A stretch of 63,799 nucleotides of DNA, from contig JACRDL010000045.1 of the NCBI GenBank assembly GCA_016218625.1, positions 1 to 63,799 on the forward strand. Reading direction: 5' to 3'. The notes under the pieces were generated by a model. It searched no databases. It was given only the letters and a program-made list of their open reading frames with translations, and had not been told where the DNA came from. Origin of the DNA: Elusimicrobiota bacterium (lineage in GTDB: Bacteria; Elusimicrobiota; UBA8919). Position numbers and translations under genes: made by a program. Below, one piece after another: positions 9,524 to 53,100 of the stretch; the first letter of the stretch is position 1; every line of letters begins with the position of its first letter.

Positions 9524-10172
9524 AACATCGGGTAGCATTTGCGGTGCCGCTGTGATAAACAGTGATAAAATTATTGCCGAGAAAAATATTTTTTTGCCAA
9601 AAAATTCGTCCTCCAAAATTTTTGATATTATAAAAAATATCGCAAAGAAAAACTTACAGTTTAATGCAATCGCAGTTGATGTGGGTCCCGGTTCTTTTAC
9701 CGGTATAAGAGTTGGCGTTTCTCTGGCTCGGGCTTACGGACAATTTCTGAAATTACCTGTTATCGGCGTTTCGTGTCTGGATTGTTTGGTTTTCAACGCA
9801 TTAAAAGACGCTACGCTAAAAAATGTTTCGGGAAAAATTTTCCCGATAGTAGATGCACTCCGCGGCGAAGTTTACACGGCAGAGTATGGGGGGCTAAAAA
9901 GAAAAACAAAATATAAAATAATTAAGGTTGAAAAATTCTTAAAAATGTTGGATAATAAATCAACGGTTATCGGCAATAGGGAAATTTGTAAAAAAATTTC
10001 CATGAAAAAATGCGTTATTATTAACGTATCCGCTTCTTCCGTCGGATTTACGGCGTTAAATAAATTTAAAAAAAATAAAAAGCACAATTATAATGAAGTT
10101 CTGCCTTTGTATATAAGGAGGGCTTTTGCCCAAGAGCATTATGCCGATTGTAAATCGACAAAAAGATACTGA
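9504..10172 (+). CDS. tsaB: tRNA t6A37 biosynthesis protein TsaB
   Basis: KILAIETSGSICGAAV and GPGSFTGIRVGVSLARA motifs. ATG at 9504 is preferred over TTG at 9498. Confidence 0.8.
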   Translation: MKILAIETSGSICGAAVINSDKIIAEKNIFLPKNSSSKIFDIIKNIAKKNLQFNAIAVDVGPGSFTGIRVGVSLARAYGQFLKLPVIGVSCLDCLVFNALKDATLKNVSGKIFPIVDALRGEVYTAEYGGLKRKTKYKIIKVEKFLKMLDNKSTVIGNREICKKISMKKCVIINVSASSVGFTALNKFKKNKKHNYNEVLPLYIRRAFAQEHYADCKSTKRY

Positions 10173-16844: not shown

Positions 16845-16941
16845 TACCACGAAGACACAAGATAAGCCACAGAATGTCACAGAATTTCACTGAATCTTTT
16901 TCTGTGTGATTCTGTGGCGCCTTTTTCGTGCTTTCGTGGTT
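16845..16941. repeat. CACAGAA-word long hairpin (inverted-orientation copy of the family)
   Basis: Arms ACCACGAAGACACAAGATAAGCCACAGAATGTCACAGAA and TTCTGTGTGATTCTGTGGCGCCTTTTTCGTGCTTTCGTGGT. Positions 16861-16890 are the exact reverse complement of 48490-48519. Confidence 0.85.
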
Positions 16942-25755: not shown

Positions 25756-27055
25756 TTTCGTCGGAGGAGTTCATCCTCCGCAATCAAAATACACATCACA
25801 GATAGAGACGGAGGAAATACCGCTCCCGAAAAAAGCGGTTATTCCTTTAGCACAACATACCGGTTCACCTTCAAAGTCCATCGTGAAAATCGGCGACCTC
25901 GTAAAAACCGGACAACTAATCGCCGAGGCAACCGGATTTATCTCCGCAAATCTGCACTCACCTGTTTCAGGAAAAGTTTCTGATATTTCCAGCCGTATTC
26001 ATCCCTGCGGATATAATTTTGACTCAATAATCATTGACTCCGACGACAAAGACGAGACGGTTGAGTTTAAAAAAAACAATCCTGAAAAACTTTTTCCGAA
26101 TGAAATCGTTGAAATTATAAAAAATGCAGGCATTGTTGGGCTTGGCGGCGCGGCTTTCCCGACACATGTAAAACTTTCTCCGCCGAAAGAGAAAAAGATT
26201 GACAGTGTTATATTAAACGGATGTGAATGTGAACCCTATTTAACCTGTGACCATAGAGTAATGCTTGAAGAGACGGAAAAAGTCGTCGGCGGTCTGAAAC
26301 TTATAATGAAAGTTCTTGATGTAAAAAACGGTTTCATCGCAATTGAAGATAGTAAAGAAGATGCGATAGAAAGGTTCAGAGTTCAGAGTTCAGAGTTCAG
26401 AGAAAAACTTAAAATTGTAAAACTTAAAACCAAATATCCTCAGGGTGCGGAAAAACAACTGATTAAAGCCGTTTTGAAACGAGAAGTTCCGTCCGGAAAA
26501 TTGCCTATGGATGTAGGTTGTGTAGTCCAAAATATCCAAACAGCAAAAGCGATTTACGAGGCGGTTTATGAAGGGAAACCGCTTTATGAACGGGTAATTA
26601 CCGTAGCAGGTTCCGTAAAAAGGCCGGGCAATTTGAAAGTTCGTATCGGGACATCACTGTCTGAAATTATTGATTATTGCGGCGGTTTTGTAGAAGATTT
26701 GCCGGGGCAAAAGGTTATAGCCGGTGGACCTATGATGGGAATTACACAGTTTAATTTGGATGTTCCCGTTGTAAAAGGTTTTTCCGGGCTGGTTATTCTT
26801 GCCCAGAAAGAGTCAAAATTTTATGAACCTTCTAATTGTATCCGTTGCGGAAAATGCATAGATGTCTGCCCGATGGGTCTTGTACCGACGATGATTTCTC
26901 GGCTGATAGAAAAAGAAAGATATGAGGAAGTGAAAAGTTACAGTCCGCTTGATTGTATGGAATGCGGCTGCTGCGCATATGAATGTCCCGCAAAAATTCA
27001 TCTTGTTCAGAATATAAAATTAGCAAAAACACTTATTCAGCAGAAAAAAATATGA
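25748..27055 (+). CDS. rnfC: Rnf complex subunit C
   Basis: GLGGAAFPTHVK, two 4Fe-4S motifs (CIRCGKCIDVCP and CMECGCCAYECP). ATG 25748 is preferred (MNSFVGGVHPP). Confidence 0.9.
   Translation: MNSFVGGVHPPQSKYTSQIETEEIPLPKKAVIPLAQHTGSPSKSIVKIGDLVKTGQLIAEATGFISANLHSPVSGKVSDISSRIHPCGYNFDSIIIDSDDKDETVEFKKNNPEKLFPNEIVEIIKNAGIVGLGGAAFPTHVKLSPPKEKKIDSVILNGCECEPYLTCDHRVMLEETEKVVGGLKLIMKVLDVKNGFIAIEDSKEDAIERFRVQSSEFREKLKIVKLKTKYPQGAEKQLIKAVLKREVPSGKLPMDVGCVVQNIQTAKAIYEAVYEGKPLYERVITVAGSVKRPGNLKVRIGTSLSEIIDYCGGFVEDLPGQKVIAGGPMMGITQFNLDVPVVKGFSGLVILAQKESKFYEPSNCIRCGKCIDVCPMGLVPTMISRLIEKERYEEVKSYSPLDCMECGCCAYECPAKIHLVQNIKLAKTLIQQKKI
26374..26401. repeat. (GTTCAGA)x4 heptamer tandem repeat inside rnfC
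   Basis: Four perfect copies encoding RFRVQSSEFRE. They lie in a region that is variable among RnfC proteins. Confidence 0.9.
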
Positions 27056-27057
27056 AA

Positions 27058-27187
27058 GGTCGCTCGCAAGCAAATTTGTCGGAAACGCTCATCCGACCGT
27101 CCTGTCGGATTTCGCTCTGTTCGTCGCTCCTGAAAGCGTAGTCGCTCCTCAAGGTTCCTTACAAATTTCTTGCTTCGCTCCGCGATT
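27058..27187. repeat. ~130-nt palindromic element between rnfC and rnfD
   Basis: Outer arms GCAAGCAAATTTGT and ACAAATTTCTTGC. Inner hairpin TCCGAC-cgtcct-GTCGGA. Rich in CGCT/GCGA words. Confidence 0.65.
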
Positions 27188-27200
27188 ACAAGGATTAAGA

Positions 27201-28114: not shown

Positions 28115-28178
28115 AGCCACAGAATTTCACAGAAAGGCACAGAAATAAATCTGTGTAAATCTGTGTTTATCTGTGGCT
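28115..28178. repeat. CACAGAA-word hairpin between rnfD and rnfG
   Basis: AGCCACAGAATTTCACAGAAAGGCACAGAAAT pairs with ATCTGTGTAAATCTGTGTTTATCTGTGGCT. Confidence 0.8.
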
Positions 28179-29337: not shown

Positions 29338-29462
29338 ACGATTTAGACAGATAAGAAACACGGATGAAAACGGATGGAGTCACGGATTCAGACAGATATA
29401 AATCCGTTTGCATCCGAAATAATCCGTCTGAATCTGCGTTTTTATCCGTTTGAATCGCTGTT
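29338..29462. repeat. ACGGAT/CAGACAGAT-word long hairpin between rnfE and rnfA
   Basis: About 60-nt arms. Starts AACGATTTAGACAGAT and ends GTTTGAATCGCTGTT. Same family as 31294-31410. Confidence 0.8.
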
Positions 29463-31293: not shown

Positions 31294-31410
31294 GACGATG
31301 TAGACAGATGGAAAGCGGATTCAGAAAAAGAGGATGCAAACGGATTTTTATCTGTCTAAATCTGCGTCACTATCCGTCTGAATCGTAGTTATAATCTGTT
31401 TGAATCGTCG
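31294..31410. repeat. ACGGAT/CAGACAGAT-word long hairpin after rnfB
   Basis: Starts GACGATGTAGACAGAT and ends GTTTGAATCGTCG. It is a direct-orientation paralog of 29338-29462. Confidence 0.8.
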
Positions 31411-31420
31411 CTAATTTATT

Positions 31421-31510
31421 GTATCGGAAACTGAAAGGCGCCACAGAACCACACAGAAAAAGAACACAGAAATAACTTCTGTGAACTTCTGTGAAATTCT
31501 GTGGCTTATA
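31421..31510. repeat. CACAGAA-word hairpin, near-identical paralog of 48421-48520
   Basis: GTATCGGAA..GCGCCACAGAACCACACAGAAA...TTCTGTGAAATTCTGTGGCTTAT. A 22-nt block is identical to the other copy. Confidence 0.85.
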
Positions 31511-34888: not shown

Positions 34889-34954
34889 AACCACGAGATT
34901 TACACAAGATTTTCACAAGAAAAAAATACTAAAAATCTGTGTTAATCTGTGGTT
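34889..34954. repeat. degenerate CACA(A)GA-word hairpin
   Basis: AACCACGAGATTTACACAAGATTTTCACAAGA pairs with ATCTGTGTTAATCTGTGGTT. Confidence 0.6.
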
Positions 34955-39839: not shown

Positions 39840-40661
39840 ATGAAATTAAAAGCAAACGCAAAGATAAATCTGTTTTTAGATGTGCTTGGGAAACGAAAAG
39901 ACGGGTATCACAATATAAAAACGATTTTTCAGGAAATTTCGCTTTTCGATGATATTTTTATTAGAGAAACAAAAAACAGAATCAAAATTTTTTGTGATCA
40001 TCCAAAAGTTCCGACCGATAAAAGAAATCTTGTTTATAAAGCGGTGGATTTAATAAAAAAACGGTTCAAAATTAAAAAAGACATTGAAATAAAAATCAAA
40101 AAAAGAATCCCTGTCGGAGCAGGTTTGGGAGGCGGTTCGTCGGATGCTGCGGCTGTGTTAGGAGGACTCAATAAACTTTGGAATTTGAAACTTGATAAAA
40201 ATCAACTTGCCAAAATAGGAAAAAAACTCGGCGCCGATGTCCCGTTTTTTATTTATGGCGGCAGATGTCTTGGCGAAGGAATAGGCGATAAACTTATGCC
40301 GCTTAAAATCAGAAAAACCCAGTGGTATGTGATAGTTAAGCCGCCATTTGAAATTTCTACAAAAAACATATATTTAAGATTGACAAAAACAAGAAAAACT
40401 GGTAAAATAAAAAAATATATTAACAGATTAGAAGATGTTGTAATTCCTTTGTATCCTGAAATAAAAAAGATTAAAGAGAAATTAGTTGATTATGGTGCAG
40501 AATTTTCATTAATGTCCGGCAGCGGGAGTTGTGTTTTCGGTTTTGTAAAAAATAAAAGTGTCGGCGAAAAAATAAAAAACAAAATGAAAAAAGCCGGCTA
40601 TGCTGTTTGGTTGGTACATTCGGTAGAAGGCAGTAAGTGGGAAGTGGGAAGTGGGAAGTAA
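39840..40661 (+). CDS. ispE: 4-diphosphocytidyl-2-C-methyl-D-erythritol kinase
   Basis: KANAKINLFLDVLGKRKDGYH and the GHMP motif GAGLGGGSSDAAAVL. The C-terminal 9 aa run into a GGGAAGT repeat. Confidence 0.85.
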   Translation: MKLKANAKINLFLDVLGKRKDGYHNIKTIFQEISLFDDIFIRETKNRIKIFCDHPKVPTDKRNLVYKAVDLIKKRFKIKKDIEIKIKKRIPVGAGLGGGSSDAAAVLGGLNKLWNLKLDKNQLAKIGKKLGADVPFFIYGGRCLGEGIGDKLMPLKIRKTQWYVIVKPPFEISTKNIYLRLTKTRKTGKIKKYINRLEDVVIPLYPEIKKIKEKLVDYGAEFSLMSGSGSCVFGFVKNKSVGEKIKNKMKKAGYAVWLVHSVEGSKWEVGSGK

Positions 40662-40708
40662 GAAGTGGTTTTGGTTTAACTACTCTCTACTTACTACTAC
40701 CTACTCCC
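40632..40708. repeat. GGGAAGT/AGTAAG-word hairpin between ispE and spoVG
   Basis: AGTAAGTGGGAAGTGGGAAGTGGGAAGTAAGAAGTGG pairs with AACTACTCTCTACTTACTACTACCTACTCCC. Confidence 0.75.
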
Positions 40709-40727
40709 TGATTTTATGGGGGGCATC

Positions 40728-41039
40728 ATGGAGATTACAGAGGTTCGGGTTTTTTTGAAGGAAGAGGAGCGGTTAAGGGCATATGTGACGGTGACATTTG
40801 ACAATGCATTTGTCGTCAGGAATATGAAAATTGTCAAAGTCAATGACAAACTGATTGTTTCTATGCCGTCAAGAAAAATGAAGGACGGTTCGCACAAAGA
40901 CATCGCACATCCGATAAATGCGGAAATGAGACAAAAAATAGAAAAAGCGGTTATGGATGCATATGAGAAAGAACTTAAAAATCCGCATCCCGTCAAACCG
41001 AGAGAGGTAAAAAGCGAATATCCCGCGAAGGAAGAATAA
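40728..41039 (+). CDS. spoVG: septation/regulatory protein SpoVG
   Basis: MEITEVRVFLKEEERLRAYVTVTFDNAFVVRNMKIV...VSMPSRK. ATG 40728 is preferred. Confidence 0.85.
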   Translation: MEITEVRVFLKEEERLRAYVTVTFDNAFVVRNMKIVKVNDKLIVSMPSRKMKDGSHKDIAHPINAEMRQKIEKAVMDAYEKELKNPHPVKPREVKSEYPAKEE

Positions 41040-41041
41040 AA

Positions 41042-43021
41042 ATGAAAAAGGAAATGATGATACGGTTATACGGTGATAAGATGATACGAATCAGCATATC
41101 AGCATATCAGCATATCATCGCAGTTTTTTCACTTACTTGCTTACTCGCTTACTCGCTTACTCGCTGTCTCTATGCTGCACCGTCGGGAAACATTCAACTT
41201 TCAATCGCTTCCCCTGACCCCGCCACTGCCGGTGAAAAAGTAACATTTCAGGTAATTGCATTGAATACGGGTAGTGAAAAATGGCTTTCCGATGAATATT
41301 ATATGGAAGCCGAGATTTATGATGCGCAAAAAAATTACATCAAAAAAACAGGGAAACTGAAAGTTAAAAATGATGTCAACACGGGTGAAACGGCGCTTGC
41401 CTATATTCCGTTTACCGTGCCGAGTTCTTTTTCCGGCGAGTATTTTTACAAAATTACTTTAACACTTAAAGAGCAAAGAATTATCGTCTCCGAGTATCTT
41501 CCTTTTACCATAGTTGAACTTGCCCGCCCCCTTCAACCGGAAAAAAAAGTTACCGTCGGCGGTAATGCCATTCTTTCATGGAAACAATCGCAAAAAAAAT
41601 ATGAGGTAGACAGTTCTTCATCCGACTACAACGGTTCTCTCAATTTGAATTTGGTTGGCAATGTCTATCAAACGCCGGTTTCGCTGAATGTTTATGCGCT
41701 CTATACGAAATCAGATCAATTTGACCTTGACAATTTTCTTTTTAATTATTACGGGAAAAAAATTCAGGTCGCTTTCGGCGACATACAGCCGTCATATAAT
41801 TCGCTTACATTATATGGTGCGGGAATCCGCGGTTTGAATATCACAGGAACAACAGGAAAATTTTCCGCATCCATCGTCGGTGCCCAGTCGGCGGAAAAAG
41901 AGGAAGGGACGGACACTGCCAACGGCATCTACGAAAGGTATCTATACGGCGGAAAAATAAATCAGGGCTTCACCGAGATGAACACCGTTTTAGGCGGCTC
42001 ATATATTGAAAGCAAAGATAATGAAAATTCTATTGAAAGACCCGGTACAACCCTTCCCGTTAAAAATACCGTTATCGGCGGTGATGTATATTTTGAACCC
42101 ATTGATTTTTTAGGAGTGAAAGGCGATTACGGGCAATCGGAGTACTGGGAGGATATTTCGTCAGGTTCAGTTAAGGACTCCGGCATCAGAGCGACGATTT
42201 CTTCCGTCAATGTTAAAAACTTTTCATTCACGGGAATATACTCAAAAATAGAACCGGATTTCAACTCGCTTGGTGCCCCCGCTTCCACAAAAGACAAGGA
42301 ATCATATGAACTCTCAACCGGGTATTCTCTGGAGCGTTCCTGTTCGCTTTCCGTCTATTTCAACAATTATCATGATAATTTGAACAAGGATCCGAGCAAG
42401 ACAACTACAACTCAAAATCTCGGAAGTGTTACATTGGCAACCGGCATTCCGAAATATCCGGTTTTGACTCTGGGTTATTCCATGAATATAGCGAAAGGCG
42501 ATCCGATAAACGCTCTTAACAATGAAACAAAAACGCCGTCGGTTGGAATTTCTCACACGATAAAAATGACGACACTTTCTTTAAATGCCCAGCAGTCAAA
42601 ATTCAAAGATAAAACCAGTGTCTCATCCGATTTAAAAACTGACACGGGAAATCTCGGATTTTCAACACGCATCGGAGAGAATATTTCCGTTTCCGGCGGT
42701 ACCACGCTCTCTAAAACATTAAATATTGCTTCATCAACGGAAACCGCAACTGGCTCATATTCACTCAACATAAATTATCTCAACATCATAAAAGATAAAC
42801 TCTCCGCCGCAATGTGGGGTTCTTATACGACTTCTCTTGATAAACCGATGCAATCAACGGATAATATAAACACGACCGGCACCGTTGAGTTGACATACAA
42901 CCTTCGTCAAAATCTTTCCGCCACACTCGGCTATACGCTCGCCGACTATAAAGACGATATTTCCGTAGTAAACAGTTATAAAGAAAATTCCGGAAATATC
43001 CGGCTATCAATGAGTTTTTAA
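41042..43021 (+). CDS. putative outer-membrane beta-barrel protein with an N-terminal Ig/CARDB-like domain
   Basis: Signal peptide ending CLYA. An Ig-like ~110 aa domain (GEKVTFQVIALNTGSEKW), then ~500 aa of alternating beta pattern. Terminal ...IRLSMSF. Confidence 0.55.
   Translation: MKKEMMIRLYGDKMIRISISAYQHIIAVFSLTCLLAYSLTRCLYAAPSGNIQLSIASPDPATAGEKVTFQVIALNTGSEKWLSDEYYMEAEIYDAQKNYIKKTGKLKVKNDVNTGETALAYIPFTVPSSFSGEYFYKITLTLKEQRIIVSEYLPFTIVELARPLQPEKKVTVGGNAILSWKQSQKKYEVDSSSSDYNGSLNLNLVGNVYQTPVSLNVYALYTKSDQFDLDNFLFNYYGKKIQVAFGDIQPSYNSLTLYGAGIRGLNITGTTGKFSASIVGAQSAEKEEGTDTANGIYERYLYGGKINQGFTEMNTVLGGSYIESKDNENSIERPGTTLPVKNTVIGGDVYFEPIDFLGVKGDYGQSEYWEDISSGSVKDSGIRATISSVNVKNFSFTGIYSKIEPDFNSLGAPASTKDKESYELSTGYSLERSCSLSVYFNNYHDNLNKDPSKTTTTQNLGSVTLATGIPKYPVLTLGYSMNIAKGDPINALNNETKTPSVGISHTIKMTTLSLNAQQSKFKDKTSVSSDLKTDTGNLGFSTRIGENISVSGGTTLSKTLNIASSTETATGSYSLNINYLNIIKDKLSAAMWGSYTTSLDKPMQSTDNINTTGTVELTYNLRQNLSATLGYTLADYKDDISVVNSYKENSGNIRLSMSF
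41055..41165. repeat. composite word repeats (GATACGG, CAGCATAT x3, CTTACTCG x3) encoding the leader peptide
   Basis: Read directly. Encodes MIRLYGDKMIRISISAYQHIIAVFSLTCLLAYSLTR. Confidence 0.85.
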
Positions 43022-43082
43022 TAGACTATAGATTACACGGATAAAAGACAAGATTACACAGATTAAAATCCTGGGAGGGAAA

Positions 43083-44522
43083 ATGAAACTAAAATCGGGA
43101 AGTGGGAAGTGGTTTGTAGCGGGCGAATTGCTATTCGCCATATTTTGTGGGATAGCAATCCCACCGCTACTCCCTACTCCCTGTCTTTACGCTCAAAAAG
43201 AATCAAAGACATCAATTGAAACCAAAATTGCCATTGAATCAAGCATGGAGAACCGTCTGAAAAAGGTCCTGACCGAAATAACCGGCACCGAAAAAATCGT
43301 CATCATAGTAAATGTCCAGTTGATGAGCGAAAAAAAGGAAAAAGCGCCTGCTAAAAAAGAGGATGAAATGTTTCTTCCCGGAGTTCCCATAAAAGAAACA
43401 CTTGCCGAAAAAAAGGTTGAGTCGGTTATGATGTCCGCACTTGGCGACGACACCAGGACGCTCATCAAAAAACTTTCGGTCACTATTATACTTGATAAAT
43501 CCGTATCTTCCGCAGTGGTTGAAATAGTAAAAAAAGTTTCATCGGGCCTTCTGGGGATTGAACCGGAGAGAGGCGATGAACTTAAAATTGAGCAGATGAG
43601 TTTTCATAAAGATATTTTTTCGTGGAGTTCGCTTATTTATCCGCCGAATATCTACTGGATTTTTGCTGTCTTGGCAGCACTCGGCTTTACCTTAACGATT
43701 TCACTGTTTTTGTTCGGACCTTTCCAGAAATTTGCCAAAGACCTTGTTTCTGCGGCTGTCAGTTCGGCGTCATCATTTAAGGAAAAGACATCGGAAGCAT
43801 CAGGCGGCTTTGCGACTGGTGCGGCAATTCCGGAAATAGCCGCCCCGGCGGAAACAAGAAAGGAACTTACGGCTTCCGGCAAAGAGCCGCTTTTTTCGTT
43901 TGTCAATTCCGAGAACATAAAGGAACTTGTTTATCTTCTCAAAAACGAATCAGCAAAAAATATAGCAATCGTTATGAACTATCTGACATCGGAATTATCA
44001 GCCCGAATTTTTACCGAGCTCCCGAAGGATATAAAGAAAGATGTCGTCGGTTTTTTGTCCAAGGTGGAGGAACTTACTCCGTCGGAGGTTGAAAAATTAG
44101 AAAACCATCTTAAAATAAAAATTGATTTTCTTTCAGGCGGAGAGGAAAAAATACGGGATATTGTAAATAATGCCGACGAGAAACTTCAAGGCGAAATTAT
44201 TTCCGAACTAAAAACCAAAGACCCGAACCTTGCCCAAAAAATTGAAAAATCAATCGTTCGTATTGACATTCTTTCTTCTATGGATGTGTCTGGTTTGCAA
44301 CTTTTAATAAAACAGGCGGGGACTGCCGTATTCGGACAGATACTGAAAGTTTTGCCCGCCGAGCAGCAGGAAAAAGTGTTTTCCGTTTTGCCGGCCGGAG
44401 CCGCTACCCGCTTGAAACAGGAAATGGAATTGGGAAAATCAATAACACCCCAGCGGCTTGAAATTGAGAAAAAAAGAATGCTGGATATTATTCGTAGGAT
44501 GAAAGAGAGAGGACTGATATGA
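43083..44522 (+). CDS. FliF-like ring domain / TM / FliG-like (middle plus C-terminal domains) fusion protein
   Basis: GGGAGGG Shine-Dalgarno. Periplasmic MENRLKKVLTEITGTEKIVIIVNVQL and KKLSVTIILD...PERGDELKIEQMSF are YscJ/FliF-like. TM helix YWIFAVLAALGFTLTISLFLF. The cytoplasmic half aligns by eye with FliG_M/FliG_C. Confidence 0.65.
   Translation: MKLKSGSGKWFVAGELLFAIFCGIAIPPLLPTPCLYAQKESKTSIETKIAIESSMENRLKKVLTEITGTEKIVIIVNVQLMSEKKEKAPAKKEDEMFLPGVPIKETLAEKKVESVMMSALGDDTRTLIKKLSVTIILDKSVSSAVVEIVKKVSSGLLGIEPERGDELKIEQMSFHKDIFSWSSLIYPPNIYWIFAVLAALGFTLTISLFLFGPFQKFAKDLVSAAVSSASSFKEKTSEASGGFATGAAIPEIAAPAETRKELTASGKEPLFSFVNSENIKELVYLLKNESAKNIAIVMNYLTSELSARIFTELPKDIKKDVVGFLSKVEELTPSEVEKLENHLKIKIDFLSGGEEKIRDIVNNADEKLQGEIISELKTKDPNLAQKIEKSIVRIDILSSMDVSGLQLLIKQAGTAVFGQILKVLPAEQQEKVFSVLPAGAATRLKQEMELGKSITPQRLEIEKKRMLDIIRRMKERGLI
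43098..43183. repeat. GGGAAGT-word arms enclosing a 55-nt three-way-junction palindrome (inside the signal-peptide coding region)
   Basis: GTAGCGG (43116-22) pairs with CCGCTAC (43164-70). They enclose hairpins GCGAAT-tgct-ATTCGC and GTGGGAT-agca-ATCCCAC. Confidence 0.8.
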
Positions 44523-44733
44523 CCACAGAACAGACACGGAAGCCCCCGCTTAAAGCGGGGGACACGGAACAAACACGGAACTGGTGCGGAATGTCATTGC
44601 GAGGAGTGAATGAAATGAACGACGAAGCAATCTCATGGGATTGCCACGGGACTTTGTCCCTCGCAATGACAACTTCGTTGTCAGTTTAGTGTCAGTTCTG
44701 TGTACAAGTTCCGCTTCAGTTCCGTGTAAGGAG
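44523..44733. repeat. composite element: CACGGAAC-word arms, a GC hairpin, and a nested GTCATTGCGAGG palindrome
   Basis: GCCCCCGCT-taa-AGCGGGGG (44541-61). GTCATTGCGAGG...CCTCGCAATGAC (44593-44670). Right arm GTTCCGCTTCAGTTCCGTG. Confidence 0.8.
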
Positions 44734-44743
44734 CGTAGCGACT

Positions 44744-45517
44744 ATGGATTTAATGACTTTATGCGGGTTTCTTATCGGCGGCGGTGCCGTCTATTATGTA
44801 ATGGTTCAGGGAAATATTGTAAATCTTCTTTTAGACCTTAACGCCGCAATACTTGTATTCGGCGGCACGCTCGGCGCTGCACTGATTACATATCCATGGA
44901 AAATAGTAAAAATTATTCCGAAAGCGATAACGATGATGATTTTTCCGCCCAAAAGGATAAGCAACGATACGGCTGTAAAAACTATTGTTTCGCTTGCCGA
45001 AAAATCAAAGCGGGAAGGAATTGAAAAGTTGCAGGAAGAAATTCCAAAATTAGAAACACCGTTTTTAAGGGATGCTCTGCAGATGGTTGTTGACGGTTTG
45101 GAGACGGAAATTATCAAGGAAAAACTTGAAAAGGAACTTTCGCTTGTCCGCCAGCGTCACCATCAGGTTTCATCAATTTTTCGTTCAATGGGAGCGTATT
45201 CGCCTATTTTCGGACTGTTGGGAACGCTGATTGGTGTCGTTCAGGTTTTAAGAAATCTTTCAGATGCCCAATCAATGGGCGCTGCAATGGCTATCGCGGT
45301 GACCACGACATTTTACGGAATTTTCGGCGCCAATTTTTTATTTTTACCGATAGCGGGAAAACTTACCATTTATTCCGAGGATGAAATTACGCTGAAAGAA
45401 CTTCTTGCGCGGGGCGTTTTATCAATTCAAAAAGGAGATGTCCCTGTTTTAATTCAGACGAAACTTGAAGCATTTCTGGCGTATAAGTTGCGTGGAAAAG
45501 AAGGAGAGAAAAAGTAA
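44744..45517 (+). CDS. motA: flagellar-type stator protein MotA/PomA
   Basis: 257 aa, 4 TM helices, a cytoplasmic charged loop, and conserved prolines in AYSPIFGLLGT and LFLPIAGKL. AAGGAG Shine-Dalgarno. Confidence 0.85.
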   Translation: MDLMTLCGFLIGGGAVYYVMVQGNIVNLLLDLNAAILVFGGTLGAALITYPWKIVKIIPKAITMMIFPPKRISNDTAVKTIVSLAEKSKREGIEKLQEEIPKLETPFLRDALQMVVDGLETEIIKEKLEKELSLVRQRHHQVSSIFRSMGAYSPIFGLLGTLIGVVQVLRNLSDAQSMGAAMAIAVTTTFYGIFGANFLFLPIAGKLTIYSEDEITLKELLARGVLSIQKGDVPVLIQTKLEAFLAYKLRGKEGEKK

Positions 45518-45584
45518 GCAGTAAGCAGTGAGTTAGGGAAGTCAAAATCCTCACTCACTTACTCACTTACTCACTGTTTTTTTT
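45513..45584 (+). terminator. terminator-like word-hairpin plus T8 between motA and motB
   Basis: AGTAAGCAGTAAGCAGTGAGTTAGGG pairs imperfectly with CCTCACTCACTTACTCACTTACTCACT. A T8 run (45577-84) follows, abutting ATG 45585. Confidence 0.5.
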
Positions 45585-46241
45585 ATGGCTCAACGAAGAG
45601 AAACAGATTCTCAGGAAGGTAATATCTGGACAACCGTATATTCGGATATGGTGACCAATCTCATGCTTTTTTTTCTGATGCTATACGGCTTGACTCGAAT
45701 GTCAGCCGATATGCGCAGCGATATCACAAAAGGGCTTGAAAAAAAATTCCGCGGCGCAACCTCTGCGGAAGTCCGTGCGGAAAAGGTGGTAAAAAAATTC
45801 ACCGAAGAAGAAACCGCCTCAAAGGTCAGCGATCTTGCTCAAAGCGAAAAATCGGAATATACATCCGTTGAAATAAACGAGAAACAAATCAAAATTATTC
45901 TTAATTCCCCTGTGCTTTTTTCACCCGGAAGCGCCGAGTTGCCCGATGCAACAAAAATCGCGCTGAATGATGTGGCAAGAATTATTAAACCCGTTCCCAA
46001 TACGATAATAATAGAAGGGCACACCGATGATATGCCGATTTCCAGAGGGCAATACTCAACAAACTGGGAACTTTCCGTGGCGCGGGCTTACAGCGTTATT
46101 GAATATTTCGTCAAAATTAAAAATATTCCTGCCGGCAGGTTTGTCGCGGCGGGTTACGGCGAGTTTAAAGCGATTGCGGGAAACGAAACCGAAGAGGGCA
46201 GGGCAAGAAACAGAAGGATTGAAATTGTGATGGTACGGTGA
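45585..46241 (+). CDS. motB: stator protein MotB (OmpA-like peptidoglycan-binding C-terminus)
   Basis: NIWTTVYSDMVTNLMLFF carries the channel Asp (D21, 45645-47). IIEGHTDDMPI...RARNRRIEIVM is the OmpA domain. Confidence 0.8.
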   Translation: MAQRRETDSQEGNIWTTVYSDMVTNLMLFFLMLYGLTRMSADMRSDITKGLEKKFRGATSAEVRAEKVVKKFTEEETASKVSDLAQSEKSEYTSVEINEKQIKIILNSPVLFSPGSAELPDATKIALNDVARIIKPVPNTIIIEGHTDDMPISRGQYSTNWELSVARAYSVIEYFVKIKNIPAGRFVAAGYGEFKAIAGNETEEGRARNRRIEIVMVR

Positions 46242-46242
46242 G

Positions 46243-46291
46243 GAACACGGAACTGACGCGGAATGAAGGAACACGGAACTGACACGGAATT
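46243..46291. repeat. CACGGAAC-word left arm flanking the GxxExxY gene
   Basis: GGAACACGGAACTGACGCGGAATGAAGGAACACGGAACTGACACGGAA. Complementary to 46667-46712. Confidence 0.8.
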
Positions 46292-46666
46292 ATGAGCAAA
46301 CTTTTATATGAGAGCGAGTCATATATTATTCGCGGTGTGGCATATGATATCTACAAGAAATTCAGGAATAGACATAAGGAAAAAGTTTATCAGAGTGCTT
46401 TTTATTATGGTCTTGTAAATAAGGGACTTAAAACGGAAAAAGAAAAAAGAATTGAGGTGAATTTTGATGGCAGAAAAGTCGGGACATATATACCGGATTT
46501 AATTGTGGAAGATAAACTTATGATAGAACTCAAAGTTAAACCGGAAATAACATCCGAAGATATAAAACAGTTCTGGTATTATCTTAAAAATTCAGGATAT
46601 AAAGTAGGTTTTCTAATAAATTTTGGCAGGTCTGATGGAATTAGAATAATCCGCAGAGTTCATTAA
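46292..46666 (+). CDS. GxxExxY-family (PD-(D/E)XK-like) protein
   Basis: 124 aa. EKVYQSAFYYGLVNKGL, YIPDLIVEDKLMIELK and GFLINFG match the GxxExxY family pattern. Confidence 0.75.
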   Translation: MSKLLYESESYIIRGVAYDIYKKFRNRHKEKVYQSAFYYGLVNKGLKTEKEKRIEVNFDGRKVGTYIPDLIVEDKLMIELKVKPEITSEDIKQFWYYLKNSGYKVGFLINFGRSDGIRIIRRVH

Positions 46667-46712
46667 AGTTCCGCTTCTGTTCCGTGTATAAGTTCCGTGT
46701 CAGTTCAGTGGT
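46667..46712. repeat. GTTCCGTG-word right arm flanking the GxxExxY gene
   Basis: AGTTCCGCTTCTGTTCCGTGTATAAGTTCCGTGTCAGTTCAGTGG. TTCCGTGTCAGTTC is the exact complement of GAACTGACACGGAA upstream. Confidence 0.8.
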
Positions 46713-46716
46713 ATTT

Positions 46717-47475
46717 ATGGATAAAGATTATTTTCAGGAAGACAGTGATATAATTGCGGCGATTGAAGGCGGCGAGGATTCGCAGAAAACTTCAAAACCC
46801 GAAGGTGAAAAATCCGAAAGTGAACATCGCGATCATTTTATTTCCACTGATTCATGGGTAATTCCATATGCCAATCTTATGACGATTTTGATGATTTTCT
46901 TTATGATACTTTATGCTTATGCCATTTTGTACGGCGGCGGCGCCCGATATGAAAAAGCAATGGCATCTATTCAGAAAGGCGTTGCTACGGGTAGCGAACA
47001 GTTAAAAAAAATAGAAACGCTTGAAAAAGAGGCGAATGCCGGAACGCAGATGGAGGATTTCATCAAGGAAAAAAATCTTTCCGAATATGCAAAGGTAGAA
47101 ACAAACGCCCAGAGAATAAAAATTTCTCTGTCAAATCCGATATTGTTTGACAGCGGTTCCGCGGAACTTAAAAGTGCCGCAACTCCTGCATTAAAAGAAA
47201 TAGCCCAGTTAATTCTCACTATGGAAAATCCGATTATTGTTGAAGGACACACCGACGATGTTCCTATTTCTTCGGCGAAATACCGTTCCAATTTTGAACT
47301 TTCTGCCGCGCGGGCGTTCAGCGTTATAAATTATTTCATCAACATTGAAAAAATATCCCCGGAAAGATTTTCCACATTCGGTTACGGCGAATACAGGCCG
47401 GTCGTCTCAAATGATACCGAAGAAAACCGTGCAAAAAACAGAAGAATTGAGATTAACATTATAAGAAAAACATGA
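46717..47475 (+). CDS. MotB paralog with Asn in place of the channel Asp
   Basis: SWVIPYANLMTILMIFF (N53, AAT 46873-75). IVEGHTDDVPI...RAKNRRIEINI is the OmpA domain. ATG 46717 is preferred. Confidence 0.75.
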   Translation: MDKDYFQEDSDIIAAIEGGEDSQKTSKPEGEKSESEHRDHFISTDSWVIPYANLMTILMIFFMILYAYAILYGGGARYEKAMASIQKGVATGSEQLKKIETLEKEANAGTQMEDFIKEKNLSEYAKVETNAQRIKISLSNPILFDSGSAELKSAATPALKEIAQLILTMENPIIVEGHTDDVPISSAKYRSNFELSAARAFSVINYFINIEKISPERFSTFGYGEYRPVVSNDTEENRAKNRRIEINIIRKT

Positions 47476-48392
47476 AAAAAGAATCGTTGATACGGTTATA
47501 TGCTTATATGCTGATACGATTTTTACATATCATCGTATTACCGTATTACCGTATTACTGTAGTTGTTTTACTACTTATCACCGTATCATCTTATCACCGT
47601 ATCACCTGCCTTTATGCACAGGAAATTTCCACTCTCTATCAGGATGCGATGACGGCGTTTTACAAAAAGGACTACAAAAAAGCGATTTCACTCTGGGAAG
47701 AGGTATTAAAAGTTGACCCAAGGCAAAAAAATCCGCAGAAACTTATAGAGATGGCTCGCTCAAAAATGGCGGAGAATATAAAGCCGCTCACCGACGAATT
47801 CAACAAATTTTTGGAAAGGGGCGAATACCTTCAATCAGTGGAAAAACTGGACCAACTTCTGGAACTTGACCCTACAAATCCAACTTGGCAGAGTTACAGA
47901 GAAAAACTTCAGAAGTTCACGGTGAATGTTGCACCGTCAATTACGGAGAAGGGAAAAATCCCTCAACTTTTAAGAAAAAGCGTCAACAGTTATTTAGGCA
48001 GAGAAAAAGACGACCGTATTGCCGTTCTTGCCTCCCGTTACGCGTGGCAACTTGAAAAATCAAATAAACTTTCTGAAAAGGTTTTTCTTTTTATGGACAA
48101 GGAGTTCTCGGTGGTCGCCCGGATTGAGGTTATTGACAGGGTGAAGACCGTTGTTGAGCAGAAGCAGGATACGATTTTGGATGCGATTTACGACGGTAAA
48201 TACGAATACGCCAAAATGGAATGCGAACTGGTAATATCAATTGAGCCGGAGAATGCTCTCGCTTGGAAACGGCTCGGCTCGGTGTATTATGCTCTCGGAA
48301 AAAGAACTGATGCAAAGGCGTGCTGGCAGGAAGCGATGAGAATTGCACCCGATGACTCCGAAACAAAAAAATTTTTACAGAAAATCAAGTGA
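47472..48392 (+). CDS. secreted TPR-repeat protein
   Basis: Leader ends CLYAQ. TPR units (AFYKKDYKKAISLWEEVLKVDP; AWKRLGSVYYALGKRTDAKACWQEAMRIAP). ATGA overlap with upstream. Confidence 0.65.
   Translation: MKKESLIRLYAYMLIRFLHIIVLPYYRITVVVLLLITVSSYHRITCLYAQEISTLYQDAMTAFYKKDYKKAISLWEEVLKVDPRQKNPQKLIEMARSKMAENIKPLTDEFNKFLERGEYLQSVEKLDQLLELDPTNPTWQSYREKLQKFTVNVAPSITEKGKIPQLLRKSVNSYLGREKDDRIAVLASRYAWQLEKSNKLSEKVFLFMDKEFSVVARIEVIDRVKTVVEQKQDTILDAIYDGKYEYAKMECELVISIEPENALAWKRLGSVYYALGKRTDAKACWQEAMRIAPDDSETKKFLQKIK
47487..47608. repeat. GATACGG/GTATTACC-word palindromic repeats encoding the leader peptide
   Basis: Shares TGATACGGTTATA (direct) and ACGGTGATAAGATGATACG (inverted, 47582-47600) with the leader of ORF 41042. 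Confidence 0.85.
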
Positions 48393-48420
48393 AAGACAAT
48401 TAAGAATTGATTTTTTTAGA

Positions 48421-48520
48421 GTATCGGAATTTGAAAAGCGCCACAGAACCACACAGAAACAACACAGAAAGAAACAAGAAAAAACTTCTGTGAAATTCTG
48501 TGACATTCTGTGGCTTATCT
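48421..48520. repeat. CACAGAA-word hairpin, paralog of 31421-31510
   Basis: GTATCGGAATTTGAAAAGCGCCACAGAACCACACAGAAA...TTCTGTGAAATTCTGTGACATTCTGTGGCTTATC. Confidence 0.85.
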
Positions 48521-48521
48521 T

Positions 48522-49016
48522 ATGGATTACATTCAGATTTTTGATGAATTGAATAAGGAAGAGATTGAATATCTGGTTGTCGGCGGACTGGCTTTGAATT
48601 TGCTGGGCATTCCGAGAGCGACATATGATATTGACCTGCTTTTAGAGTTATCATCGCACAACCTTATAAAGTTTTTGTCTTTGGTAAAAAAGTGGGGATT
48701 TAAACCTAAGGTTCCGGTAAGCATTATGGATTTTGCTGAGAAAGAAAAAAGAGACGGCTGGATAAAAAAGAAAAATATGAAAGCGTTCTGTCTGGTAAAT
48801 CCCGATTGGGCATTATCGGAAATTGACATTATTATTGATACACCGGTAACATACAATTTAGCGGCAAAAGATGCTAAACATATCAAAATCGGCACTGCTC
48901 CCGCTGTTTCCGTTCCGGTTATTTCAGTGAATAATCTTATAAAAATGAAACAAAAAACCGCCAGGCAGCAGGACAAAGCGGATATAAGATATTTAAGGAA
49001 ACTGCAAGATGTCTAA
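48522..49016 (+). CDS. nucleotidyltransferase-fold protein (possible toxin-antitoxin component)
   Basis: YLVVGGLALNLLGIPRATYDIDLLL and the C-terminal KQKTARQQDKADIRYL resemble uncharacterised nucleotidyltransferase families. Confidence 0.45.
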   Translation: MDYIQIFDELNKEEIEYLVVGGLALNLLGIPRATYDIDLLLELSSHNLIKFLSLVKKWGFKPKVPVSIMDFAEKEKRDGWIKKKNMKAFCLVNPDWALSEIDIIIDTPVTYNLAAKDAKHIKIGTAPAVSVPVISVNNLIKMKQKTARQQDKADIRYLRKLQDV

Positions 49017-50158: not shown

Positions 50159-53100
50159 ATGAAAAATAGTATGAAAACCAGAACCGTCCCGATAATTTCC
50201 CTTTGTAGTCGCAGAGTTTACTCTGCTTTCTTGTCATTGCGAGCGATAGCGAAGGTTGTCATTGCGAGGGCGAAGCCCGTGGCAATCTCTGTGTTTGTTC
50301 TGCGTCAGTTCCGCGTTCTGTTCCGCGTCTGTTCAGCGGTCTTAATAATTTCCTCCGTCCCCATTAGTTTATATGCTTGGGTAAAATATTCGGGAAATCC
50401 TATCCTGATTCACGAAAATGTTGGGGCACGGTTTCCAACAACGCTGAAAGAAAATAATACATATTATCTATTCTATGGCGAGTTAAATGTTGGCGACAAT
50501 GCAATGTGGGTAAACCTTGCAACTGCAACTGCTGTTACAGGTCCATATGGCAAATATGGAACCGTTCATAATATAAATTTACAAACATGGATGTCCCATG
50601 CTGTTTATCCCGGGTGTGTGCTTAAAGTTGCAACAACTTACTTTATGTACTATCATGGTGATGATGCGAACCTTGACCCCAACCGATATATCGGGGTTTC
50701 TACAAGTACGAATCTGTACAACTGGTCACCACATTATAATAATCCTGTCTTAAGTACAGGCCTCGCGGGGTCGCCAGATTCTCAAATGGCTACAAATCCA
50801 AGTGTAATCTATAAAGACAGCCAGTTTATTATGTGGTATATTGGTTATAATGGAAGTGTTAATTCGGTATGTCGTTCAACCTCAACAGATGGATACAACT
50901 GGGAAAAATATTCAGGAAATCCTGTTCTTTCCCCAAACGGTGAGGAAGTAAATATAGAAGATGTTAGTGTTATATTTGATACCGCAACCGCAAAATACAG
51001 AATGCTTTACGACAAAGCAGATAATAATATAAGATATGCAGAATCTACTGATGGTATAAACTGGGTGAAAAAATCCAACAATCCTGTTTTGGTGGGCGGA
51101 CCATCAGCATGGGATGCTCAAAGATCAGTCATGGCAAATTTTCTTAAAGATGCTACTACTGGTTATGTAATGTGGTATTGGGGATACCCTAACGAAGATA
51201 TTGGTTTTGCTAATAATCCCGAACCTGATGCTATTACAAATCTTTCAGCACTTACAGGTCAAAATTTTAATGAGATAAAATTAAGTTGGACAAGTCCTGG
51301 CGCTAATTATGATTTGGACTCACTTCCATCAGGCAGTCAATACAAAATTCAGTACTCATCATATTCGATTAATTGGTCAACTGCTTCAGCCAATCTTACC
51401 ATTTCAACTTCTGCTGTTTCGCCAGGAAGTTTACAATCATATACCCTAACCGGTTTAATAGGAGGGGCAACTTATTACATTAGAATTTGGACAGGCGATG
51501 AAACACCAAGTTGGTCTGACCTATCTAATGATGCAACTGCACAAGCAAAACCTGACAACACACCACCGGCGGGGATTAGTAATTTGACCGCGTTAAAGGG
51601 AGCGAATGCGGGACAAATTGTTTTACAATGGACATCGCCAGGTGATGACGGAACGGTCGGCAATTTAACGGGGCAGTTTGAAATTGAATACACCACAGGC
51701 GGAATAATAACGAACGCCAATTATTATTCTCCGCCGCCGCAAATGACATCAATAAGTATTTCAACGAGTAATCTTGCACCGCTGACCGCATGCACCACAA
51801 CGCTTTACAACTTGTCGCCAGGGGCGACATACTACTTTGCAATCAAGTCAAAAGACGATGTCAACAACATATCGGTTTGGAACTCCTCTGCGGATGTTTC
51901 AGGCGTCAACACCGCCGCCTTCCTTTATATACCGTTCATTGCCAAATCAATGTTTACCGGGAATTGGAATGTTCCGGGCACATGGGAAGGGAATGCGGTT
52001 CCGTGGGCAAATCAGGGAGTAGAAATTAAAAGCGGTAATACAGTTACTTTTAGCACGACTAATGCGTCGGTTACTTGCTCAACACTTACAATTTTGGGAA
52101 CTTTGCAGTTTGACGGAGCGGTTGCCAATCGGTCAATGGTTGTAGCGGGTAACATTGACATCCAGAATGGAGGTCAATTTTTGATGCCGCCGAATACGGG
52201 TTATATTTCAACACTGAAAATCAGGTGCGATACTGCCGGTCAGTATGGAATAATCGTCAATAACGGCGGAAAGTTTGATGTTCAGGGCAACACCACAACA
52301 ACGCCATCAACGAGAAATTGCCTAATCGCATCAGACAACCCGTCATACAAAACATACATCCGAAACCTTTCACTAACAGAAGCAAATTTTAATATGTATT
52401 ATGTAGAAGTAAGCAGCGTTGGAGTGGATGCTACATCAAAAGGGGGAATAACTTTTGATGGTGCCGGAACAAGAGGAAAAATCAATTATTGCAGTATTCA
52501 TAATGGGTATATTGGCATTTATCTTAACTCCAGTTCCAGCAACACAATAAGCAATAACAATTGTTACTCAAATACTCAATATGGCATTTACTTTTACAAC
52601 AGTTCCAACAATACAATAAGCAATAATAGTATCTATGCAAATTCTTATTATGGCATTTATTTTTACAACAGTTCCAACAACACTATAAGCAATAACAGTT
52701 GTTACTCAAACTCTCAAAATGGCATTTACATTGATTCCAGTTCCAACAATACTTTGAACAATAACAGTTGTTATTCAAATACTCTATACGGCATTTACTT
52801 TGTTGGCAGTTCTAATAACATAATGAGCAATAACAATTGTTACTCAAATGCTCAAAGTGGCATTGTTTCAGGTAATAATTCCATAAATAATACAGCAGTG
52901 AAATGTGAATTGAGCAATAACACAAATAGTGATATTCAGTATATCAATGGTTCTGTTTCCAAACTAACCTTAAAAAATTGTAATTTATATTCTTCAACGA
53001 AAGTCAATACGACAGGAATAAATACTGCGGGGTCATATCTTGTTTCGTATAATCAGGACGGGACACAGGGGACGACGAAGATTTGGGGCGATTACCATAT

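Follow-up and report, generated by a model that had tools for sequence, protein, structure and literature searches.

The hairpin at positions 31421-31510 of a 63,799-nt stretch of DNA from an Elusimicrobiota bacterium (hereafter the window, meaning the whole stretch) belongs to a large class of elements that we call word hairpins, imperfect palindromes in which one arm is a run of a short word and the other arm a run of its complement. We show that word hairpins are insertions that fall into dispersed families and come without target-site duplication. On balance, we favor the reading that they are the gene-less, or miniature, members of small selfish cassettes that resemble the intervening sequences (IVSs) of rRNA and that bear a gene for either a GxxExxY protein or a four-helix-bundle protein.

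The window is contig C19 of a metagenome-assembled genome (MAG; G000) of 1.81 Mb and 38% G+C, which is 86% complete in 124 contigs and whose closest named relative is an Elusimicrobiota groundwater MAG. It was compared with four relatives, G001, G002, G003 (97% complete) and G008 (another genus), and with contigs from Logan assemblies of the sequencing runs X1 (the source run) and, for related strains, X3 and X4. Presence and absence were contrasted between genomes that are ~80-92% identical, and several of the statistics below count related copies, so that the events are not independent.

The element from which the analysis starts is the following:

31421-31510, no strand assigned: CACAGAA-family element made of a 22-nt tail (GTATCGGAAACTGAAAGGCGCC) and a 3+3-word hairpin; one of ~85-90 copies in the genome

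The tail precedes a hairpin that reads GCCACAGAA-cca-CACAGAA-aaagaa-CACAGAA, a loop, and TTCTGTG-aac-TTCTGTG-aaa-TTCTGTGGC. As DNA, the element folds at -20 kcal/mol, compared with -5.8 +/- 1.9 kcal/mol for 200 shuffled versions (z = -7.4), none of which equaled it. The 85-90 copies of the family share defined ends (CAAGATAAGCC ... GGCGCyTTTsAAATTCCGATrC) and a median nearest-neighbor identity of 94%; nine are at least 98% identical to another copy, and three stand in tandem on contig C41 (C41:42886-43135). Identities between window copies that had been read from the sequence alone proved exact: 31438-31459 is identical to 48438-48459, and 16861-16890 matches 48490-48519 as its reverse complement. 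AAGAT or AAAAT flanks both ends of the family, and here target and element could not be told apart. Three further MAGs from this bacterial family also contain CACAGAA elements, which are absent from 37 other Elusimicrobiota genomes. A plasmid origin was rejected, as the 90-nt element gave no blastn match in PLSDB.

Word hairpins are abundant throughout this genome. In a strict census, which required a 6-mer twice at 6-14-nt spacing and its reverse complement twice within 200 nt, 143 loci were found, compared with one in a shuffled genome, and 130 of the 143 fold well. Tandem arrays (TRF, period 6-12, at least 2.5 copies) numbered 1159, or 640 per Mb; the density was 33 per Mb after shuffling, and a set of 79 control loci taken from other bacteria gave 162 per Mb. 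A strong array was present in 177 of 779 intergenic spacers of at least 40 nt, and in two after shuffling. Adjacent arrays of the same period were inverted and complementary in 126 of 159 pairs and direct in 10. Within the hairpin-type pairs, complementarity between the consensus word of one arm and that of the other stands at 78%, and it is perfect in no more than four pairs; genome-wide, 454 distinct array words are in use. The sequence-only reading had described a real class of hairpins with different words in different families, and indeed a hairpin or complementary short-word arrays were found at every locus that it listed. Two of its reservations, that complementarity might be no better than expected of low-complexity sequence or that the elements might be an artefact confined to this contig, are answered by the fold and census values above and by independent Logan contigs of X1 that match the arrays base for base, together with the same families in related MAGs from other studies, which rule out an assembly artefact. 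It was also right that these are not standard repetitive extragenic palindromes (REPs) or bacterial interspersed mosaic elements (BIMEs); Rfam gave no match at gathering score across the whole window.

We next consider how the hairpins are distributed among related genomes. Each hairpin of the window almost always has 3-40 paralogues elsewhere in the genome. Contigs of related strains (runs X3 and X4) contained empty sites at three window positions, joined as 28103|28192 (0 nt of boundary ambiguity, with a GT filler), 29328|29466 (2 nt ambiguous) and 44523|44729 (0 nt). Since the ambiguity is just 0-2 nt, no target site was duplicated. The hairpin between rnfE and rnfA (29338-29462) is missing in G003 and G008, where the two genes abut or overlap, and further junctions are empty in G001, G003 or G008. 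At the rnfD|rnfG junction, the hairpin at 28115-28178 is common to the window and G003, and G001 carries a different element. Likewise, the site at 46243-46712 holds a CACGGAAC element in the window and G001 and a GGTAGAC/CCGTCT hairpin in G003 and G008, and nearly all junctions of the motor-gene cluster (40661-48533) are filled in all four genomes compared, by differing word families. Word hairpins and small palindromes also sit in the loops of other word hairpins (16845-16941, 44523-44733). As the same junctions and loops carry different elements across genomes, sites that already hold or tolerate an element are hit repeatedly.

The element at 46243-46712 had been listed as a single hairpin, and its arms are indeed complementary, but they are two arms around a gene. 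The 124-aa open reading frame (ORF) at 46292-46666 lies exactly between CACGGAAC arms, and its product matches PF13366 (E = 1.4e-27) and TIGR04256. The function of these GxxExxY / PDDEXK_3 proteins is listed as "unknown", and multiple transfers of their genes have been reported (PMC3424549). By sequence, the Protein Data Bank (PDB) contained no relative. At the orthologous site of G001, a hairpin of the same family is gene-less. The CACGGAAC arms recur in ~50 arrays of the genome, and CACAGAA differs from this word by one base. At 13 additional PF13366 loci of the bacterial family, the words are CACAGAG, CACAGAT, CGCAGAG, CGCAGAT, ACGAATA and CACGGAA. Among these, the arms with CACAGAG...CTCTGTGGC (a PF13366 gene of G002), CACAGAT and CGCAGAT share the vocabulary of the window's first (CACAGAA) word group. 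Most of ~40 metagenomic GxxExxY loci carry 2-4 upstream words of the form C[AG]C-NN-[AG]AAC, with a period of ~11, and their reverse complements downstream. The same co-varying C[AG]C..AAC arms were present at all four loci fetched from genome or run assemblies, whose homologues are named by NCBI as Parcubacteria, Taylorbacteria and unclassified bacterium. The words themselves vary by locus and include CACGGAAC, CACTAAAC, CGCGGAAC, CGCAAAAC, ACGGAT and others. Words of the GxxExxY type are carried by the CACAGAA hairpin at 31421-31510 and by its CACGGAAC, CACGAA, CACAGAT and ACGGAT relatives.

A second, unrelated gene family showed the same arrangement. In G000, each of the four PF05635 genes is framed precisely by complementary arms of 7-8-nt words, and the word differs from gene to gene (GGAGATT, GGTGATAC, AGTTCAT, AAAAATT). 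PF05635 is a four-helix bundle (S23p, the protein of 23S rRNA intervening sequences) related to the Avd protein of diversity-generating retroelements. Word arrays were present in most flanks of the PF05635 loci in G001, G002, G003 and G008, where the gene ends of minus-strand hits could not be placed. Arms of 7-8-nt words also accompany four-helix-bundle genes in Planctomycetota, Patescibacteria, Edwardsbacteria and Aureabacteria; the Edwardsbacteria protein is 79% identical to its G000 homologue, and both have GATACGG/GATATGCT words. The earlier proposal that the arms co-vary, so that complementarity is kept while the word changes, holds among homologous gene-bearing cassettes. There, the right arm of a locus complements its own left arm better than do those of other loci (16.1 vs 11.2, permutation p <= 2e-4), and the similarity of arms correlates with the identity of the proteins (Spearman 0.54, Mantel p <= 5e-4); some metagenomic ORF boundaries are mis-set, which weakens rather than inflates both results. 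In the window, by contrast, the differences in words mostly separate dispersed families, with 3-40 paralogues each, and do not reflect compensatory change in situ. Five words flank resident cassette genes, and four of these rank in the top 15 by frequency among the 454 array words.

In the cassette that we propose, two inverted arrays of 2-5 phased short words would enclose a loop that is either empty or holds one small gene. This gene would encode either a predicted PD-(D/E)XK nuclease of the GxxExxY type, with words C[AG]C-NN-[AG]A[ACT] in a 10-11-nt phase, or the unrelated four-helix-bundle protein of 23S rRNA intervening sequences (S23p / Avd-like), with words in a 7-8-nt phase. The words may serve as recognition units for the protein of the cassette, which would read them in phase, either along one face of the helix or in the strand once folded. 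Arms would then co-vary upon a change of word because one protein reads both of them, and gene-less copies could be moved or maintained in trans, with slippage of whole units altering the number of words and spreading variants within an arm. Recognition units of this kind would explain the phasing close to a helical turn, the unpaired spacers, the co-variation of the arms and the family-specific words.

The other elements of the window are given below, with the strand where one was assigned.

16845-16941: CACAGAA element nested inside another word hairpin (CACGAA), whose loop it occupies
28115-28178: CACAGAA/ATCTGTG hairpin of 3+3 words at rnfD|rnfG; orthologous in G003, lacking in an X4 strain (joint 28103|28192)
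29338-29462: ACGGAT word hairpin between the Rnf-Nqr membrane-subunit genes rnfE and rnfA; site empty in G003, G008 and an X4 strain
31294-31410: ACGGAT / CAGACAGAT word hairpin directly 3' of rnfB; five loci cover at least 50% of its length
34889-34954: CACAAGA / ATCTGTG word hairpin; junction empty in G008 (-4 overlap)
40632-40708: GGGAAGT / CTACTCC word hairpin with a 7-nt period, of a dispersed family; at this junction G003 has a copy that seems flipped
41055-41170, plus strand: three successive 8-nt arrays (GATACGGT, ATCAGCAT, CTTACTCG) in a gene that starts at 41042, within its 5' coding region; signal-peptide-like leader
43098-43183, plus strand: GTAG-type double hairpin (REPIN-like) with GGGAAGT / CTACTCC word flanks, in the N-terminal coding region of the gene starting at 43083
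44523-44733: CACGGAAC word hairpin with two other small palindromic elements nested in it; whole insert absent in an X4 strain (joint 44523|44729, no shared boundary letters)
45513-45576: AGTAAGC / CTCACTTA word hairpin with a 7-8-nt period
46243-46291, plus strand: left arm of the gene-bearing cassette, tandem (GGAACACGGAACTGAC) words with a period of ~11
46292-46666, plus strand: GxxExxY protein gene in the loop (PD-(D/E)XK, PF13366 / TIGR04256, 124 aa), with the PD...ELK motif intact
46667-46712, plus strand: right arm, made of GTTCCG(C/T) words that complement the left arm; gene-less in G001, where one arm joins directly to the other
47487-47610, plus strand: arrays of 8-nt words whose arms are complementary in part, within the 5' coding region of a TPR-protein gene that starts at 47472
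48421-48520: CACAGAA-family element with tail, in the same orientation as that at 31421
62496-62585: AGTTCGG / AACTATG word hairpin; arms homogenized to their own variants, outer units pairing at only 4/7 positions

The elements had been described as intergenic. Those at 41055 and 47487 lie in the 5' coding regions of genes for secreted proteins, and that at 43098-43183 lies in a coding region as well. Genome-wide, 93 of 130 hairpins stand between co-oriented genes, five between convergent and one between divergent genes, and some copies are inside coding regions. At the junction 40661-40716, the (GGGAAGT)n...(CTACTCC)n of the window corresponds in G003 (L087) to (GGGAGTA)n...(CCACTTA/CCACTTCCC), apparently in the opposite orientation.

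In the two genes with leader arrays (41042-41200 and 47472-47620), the arrays keep the frame open in all four genomes compared despite different words, and a conserved ...(C/S)LYA precedes the mature protein. The purine-rich arm encodes a start rich in Lys, Arg and Glu, and the pyrimidine-rich arm a hydrophobic core, as in a signal peptide. A genome scan for the motif ([CS]L[YF][AS]) found only 16 genes, six of them with arrays, which makes the link to signal peptides real at the two window genes and not a genome-wide rule. In G008 (L090, C10), the orthologue of 47475-47615 has a complete four-helix-bundle gene between the two leader word arrays of the TPR-protein gene.

One-armed, near-perfect patches of ~28-32 nt, such as (AGTCCGA)4 and (GGGAAGT)4, were seen in more than 20 unrelated coding regions with unrelated flanks (C41:20978, C113:12690, C22:12421). 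In the window, a perfect in-frame (GTTCAGA)4 patch occupies 26374-26402 in rnfC, where the encoded protein has a variable loop. The corresponding codon position holds a GTCATTGCGAG palindrome (GTCATTGCGAGCGAA...GAAGCAATCTC) in G003, an A/T hairpin (TTTTCTAATTTG-CCC-AAATTAGAAAA) in G001 and another sequence in G008; the versions of the window, G003 and G001 are in frame. An unrelated 145-nt element (CGCTCGCAAGCAAATTTGT ... ACAAATTTCTTGCTTCGCTCCGCG) that resembles a miniature inverted-repeat transposable element (MITE) lies at 27057-27200 between rnfC and rnfD, which overlap (ATGA) in G001 and G003. It has ATGAA on both sides, which may be a target duplication, and elements related to it fill further rnf junctions in G001. 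At 44590-44675, a word hairpin contains a small nested palindrome (GTCATTGCGAGG ... CGAAGCAATCTC) that occurs again at 50231-50275 in the 5' coding region of a gene for a 3497-aa protein, and an element of this type is also present in frame within rnfC of G003.

Pairing in the hairpins involves the words alone. Among 64 CACAGAA copies that were parsed, complementarity is 94.7% for words and 18% for spacers, and 57 spacer pairs differ in length; a period of 10 nt is seen in 77% of units. Across the 93 hairpins between co-oriented genes we found no G-U strand signature: the mean difference between sense and antisense folds was +0.03 kcal/mol, with the sense fold better in 37 and the antisense fold better in 56. 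As sense and antisense RNA folds are equally stable, the signature of RNA-level selection is absent. The sequence-only reading had inferred selection, or templated repair, acting on secondary structure. Selection in that form agrees neither with pairing limited to words nor with the absent G-U signature; and because the hairpins are insertions polymorphic for presence or absence, selection on structure at each locus is not the driver. The related proposal that the hairpins are functional intercistronic RNA or DNA structures (in processing, stability or termination), selected for pairing while their sequence is free to drift, strikes us as improbable. It would accord with the preference for co-oriented gene pairs, with the almost complete occupation of junctions in the motor-gene cluster of all four genomes, and with the fact that rRNA IVSs of the same design are cut by RNase III (PMC4990558). 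It is weakened by rnf junctions that hold an element in one genome while in another they are empty and the genes overlap, by the lack of strand asymmetry, and by spacers that are systematically non-complementary. Copies in both orientations and within coding regions, and a window without any Rfam match, add to this. The locus was found in DNA metagenomes only, with no RNA run among those that hold it. Intrinsic terminators were rejected: the hairpins separate genes of the rnf operon, they are A/T-rich and contain internal loops, and what comes after them is AAAAAG... (28179) or TTATAGTGG (31506), not a run of T.

Whole units are homogenized within an arm. In the orthologous hairpin at 28115, the right-arm spacers read TAA/TTT in the window and TTC/TTC in G003 with the words kept; in the hairpins at 62496 and C12:9066, each arm has expanded its own word variant; and the number of words varies among copies of a family. 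Could the hairpins then arise in place by purely local mutation, with slippage making the units and intrastrand template switching copying one arm onto the other? Such homogenization, the unequal expansion of different variants in the two arms, the great density of 7-11-nt arrays throughout the lineage and the differing word numbers would suit this idea. A Logan contig of X3 also re-traverses the array at 40635-40667, consistent with a copy-number variant; Logan unitigs break at repeats and are of little use for gauging slippage within a population. Template switching, however, predicts complementary spacers, which these are not. Dozens of unlinked loci share identical words and often the adjoining tails too, and in other genera and phyla these words are again found next to members of the same gene family. 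Slippage is thus a secondary process and not the origin of the hairpins, and we give an origin by local mutation little credence.

The hairpins have a polarity. The 5' arm is purine-rich in 96 of the 126 hairpin-type pairs and the opposite holds in 19; among distinct left-arm words, 41 of 52 are purine-rich and five pyrimidine-rich, which bears out the earlier remark that a purine-rich arm comes first. The polarity holds whichever strand is read, purine-rich sequence standing upstream of the loop on both strands. By reasoning only, purine-first polarity (96 vs 19 loci; 41 vs 5 words) is what would be expected of repeats added to 3' ends and joined head to head, as if a reverse transcriptase or telomerase-like enzyme had written arrays onto both 3' ends of a break. 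We regard this as highly implausible. RVT_1 was not found in G000 or in the 97%-complete G003, both of which are rich in arrays, and this makes writing by a reverse transcriptase unlikely. In addition, a fixed and shared vocabulary with defined element ends and tails better suits the copying of whole elements.

An orientation bias is seen in the CACAGAA family, whose copies between co-oriented genes are antisense in 48 cases and sense in 17; this is compatible with a strand-biased DNA process or with selection on orientation. The bias is one of several observations that fit REP/REPIN-type elements mobilized as single-stranded hairpins by the Y1 transposases of the genome, either REP-associated tyrosine transposases (RAYTs) or IS200-like enzymes. 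The search for such genes that the sequence-only reading had called for did yield five PF01797 genes in G000, with 5-7 in each relative. The G000 gene at C2:9267-9752 is clearly a RAYT, with GTAG hairpins on its flanks. Further points in favor are the lack of target duplications at word hairpins, a word group that consists of a GTAG/CTAC motif recurring every 7 nt, and tandem partial duplications that adjoin the ends of Y1 genes of ~230 aa. Nevertheless, none of the Y1 genes examined in five genomes (G000, G001, G002, G003, G008) is flanked by CACAGAA, CACGGAAC or another abundant word family, which weakens the case for mobilization by RAYTs. Conversely, the repeats that do flank them (GGGGACG.../...CGTCCCC or GTAG hairpins) form no gene-less doublets of the word type in G000, including in a search for GGGACG...CGTCCC, and word arms bracket other gene families specifically, across phyla. 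We therefore consider Y1 mobilization unlikely. True GTAG REPs and RAYTs coexist in the genome as a separate system (e.g. the GTAG family at 43098-43183); the CACAGAA, CACGGAAC and ACGGAT elements are 60-130 nt long, have ends of the form GCC...GGC or similar, and show no GTAG foot.

The Y1-like genes of ~230 aa (G000 C9:14192-14884 and C9:3480-4148; L092, L097, L098, L103) have inverted ends of their own, ...GGGGACGG plus ~10 nt on one side and ~10 nt plus CCGTCCCC... on the other. Beside these gene ends stand tandem partial end duplications and long word arrays, for example (GGAAATCA)5-GGACGTCCC-(GATTTACC)5 in G003. Two RAYT-like genes of G000, on C115 (rc 9514-10005) and C70 (rc 4710-5327), carry in-frame palindromic insertions of the GTAG type.

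Several points weigh against word hairpins being gene-less members of GxxExxY or four-helix-bundle cassettes. All contrasts are between genomes ~80-92% identical, and movement among near-identical strains was not observed. G001 and G003 have word hairpins and no PF13366 gene, and G000 has a single nuclease gene for roughly 140 hairpins of the GxxExxY type; mobilization in trans is thus unproven, and what these genomes contain may be relics. It could also be that the genes do not own the arms and are secondary tenants, drawn to hairpin loops as targets. Tenants would hit the abundant families most, which would also explain why cassette-flanking words are among the commonest, and co-divergence of protein and arms is expected from simple linkage. 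To our knowledge, the four-helix-bundle protein has no catalytic activity. The uniform length and shared vocabulary of the one-armed patches are explained neither by slippage alone nor by the hairpin-cassette model. Finally, genes were called with a crude ORF caller, in a MAG that is 86% complete.

With these points weighed, the cassette reading remains the one that we favor, and a wider conjecture may be built on it. Tentatively, and with considerable reserve, we suggest that GxxExxY nucleases and four-helix-bundle IVS proteins are the sequence-specific readers of two parallel classes of transposase-less mobile cassettes, which have phased word arms (10-11 and 7-8 nt, respectively) and insert into hairpin loops. 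A single mechanism would then underlie 23S rRNA IVSs, gene-less word hairpins, nesting and the re-occupation of junctions. In this Elusimicrobiota clade, it might also have produced in-frame word patches in enzymes, and signal-peptide leaders from purine-rich followed by pyrimidine-rich arms.

For the gene-less hairpins, what is new here comprises the empty sites, the re-use of sites, the contrast between words and spacers, the missing strand signature, the purine-first polarity, the missing reverse transcriptase and a candidate partner gene for the CACAGAA family. On the cassette reading, two very large protein families of no known function, GxxExxY / PDDEXK_3 and the four-helix-bundle proteins of 23S IVSs, would gain a testable role, and the origin of rRNA intervening sequences, a question standing since about 1990, would be addressed. 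The genome offers a compact test system, with one intact nuclease gene within its words, roughly 140 gene-less hairpins of the same or a one-base-different word, and natural empty and filled alleles. If the protein does read phased words, this would be a new partnership of repeat and nuclease beside REP/RAYT and NTS/Ssn, and a source of short programmable DNA recognition modules that depend on phase. For annotation, a quarter or more of the intergenic spacers of this lineage are selfish insertions and not regulatory sequence, and some of these insertions are translated.

In the literature we found no paper describing these cassettes; nearest in print are rRNA IVSs, REP/RAYT and Ssn/NTS. The inverted ends of transposons with DDE transposases (Tn7/Mu-type ends, plant Ac/Ds) hold several direct copies of a short protein-binding word, and their non-autonomous MITEs outnumber the autonomous copies. 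Word hairpins are similar in their inverted ends with repeated short words and in their many gene-less copies. They differ in that the three empty sites show no target-site duplication, no DDE transposase is associated, and the elements measure only 60-130 nt. Abundant intergenic tandem arrays of 7-nt words, with 2-6 copies per set, are a likeness to the TAACTGA repeats of Beggiatoaceae and, as generally known, to the short tandemly repeated repetitive (STRR) sequences of cyanobacteria. The TAACTGA sets are almost all direct repeats of one word, 169 direct and one indirect (PMC4679880), whereas here 126 of 159 adjacent pairs are inverted and complementary, and 454 words are in use.

The likeness to REPs, BIMEs and REPINs, as these are generally known, is that of short dispersed intergenic hairpins in hundreds of copies, in both orientations, in tandem at some sites and without target duplication; several families per genome and a cognate gene bracketed by its own repeats are further shared features. 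A REP, however, is an imperfect palindrome of 20-40 nt, and the word elements are 60-130 nt long, with arms that are internally repetitive in a phase of 7-8 or 10-11 nt and, in the main families, with no conserved GTAG foot. The bracketed genes encode a PD-(D/E)XK nuclease or a four-helix bundle and not a Y1 HUH transposase. In the Ssn / NTS (SRM) system, small genes for GIY-YIG single-strand nucleases are flanked by the dispersed hairpin repeat that these enzymes cut (PMC11893778). The system described here likewise has a small nuclease gene framed by a hairpin repeat that is present in hundreds, and repeat variants that go with nuclease variants across phyla. Only this logic is shared, since the protein is PD-(D/E)XK (PF13366) and not GIY-YIG, with an activity predicted from its sequence, and the phased words form one long hairpin around the gene instead of single NTS units.

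Finally, the rRNA IVSs with an S23p ORF, such as those of Coxiella burnetii (helix 45) and Leptospira, consist of a terminal-inverted-repeat stem with an optional ORF in its loop, and their origin and mobility are unknown (PMC4990558). ORF-less forms exist, the distribution is sporadic and consistent with horizontal transfer, and an IVS replaces the small loop of a pre-existing hairpin (PMC4990558); the cassettes of this study are alike in these respects. Typically, IVSs are located in helix 9, 25 or 45 of 23S rRNA and are excised by RNase III. The cassettes described here lie between or inside protein-coding genes and not in rRNA, and the source MAG contains no 23S rRNA gene. Their arms are arrays of phased words with unpaired spacers, in contrast to the near-perfect 28-bp stem of the IVS; a second, unrelated gene, that of the GxxExxY nuclease, uses the same design; and gene-less copies number in the hundreds. 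What the two have in common is an extended stem of inverted repeats with a PF05635 ORF in the loop, together with ORF-less forms, an arrangement found at all four PF05635 genes of G000 and in four other phyla.

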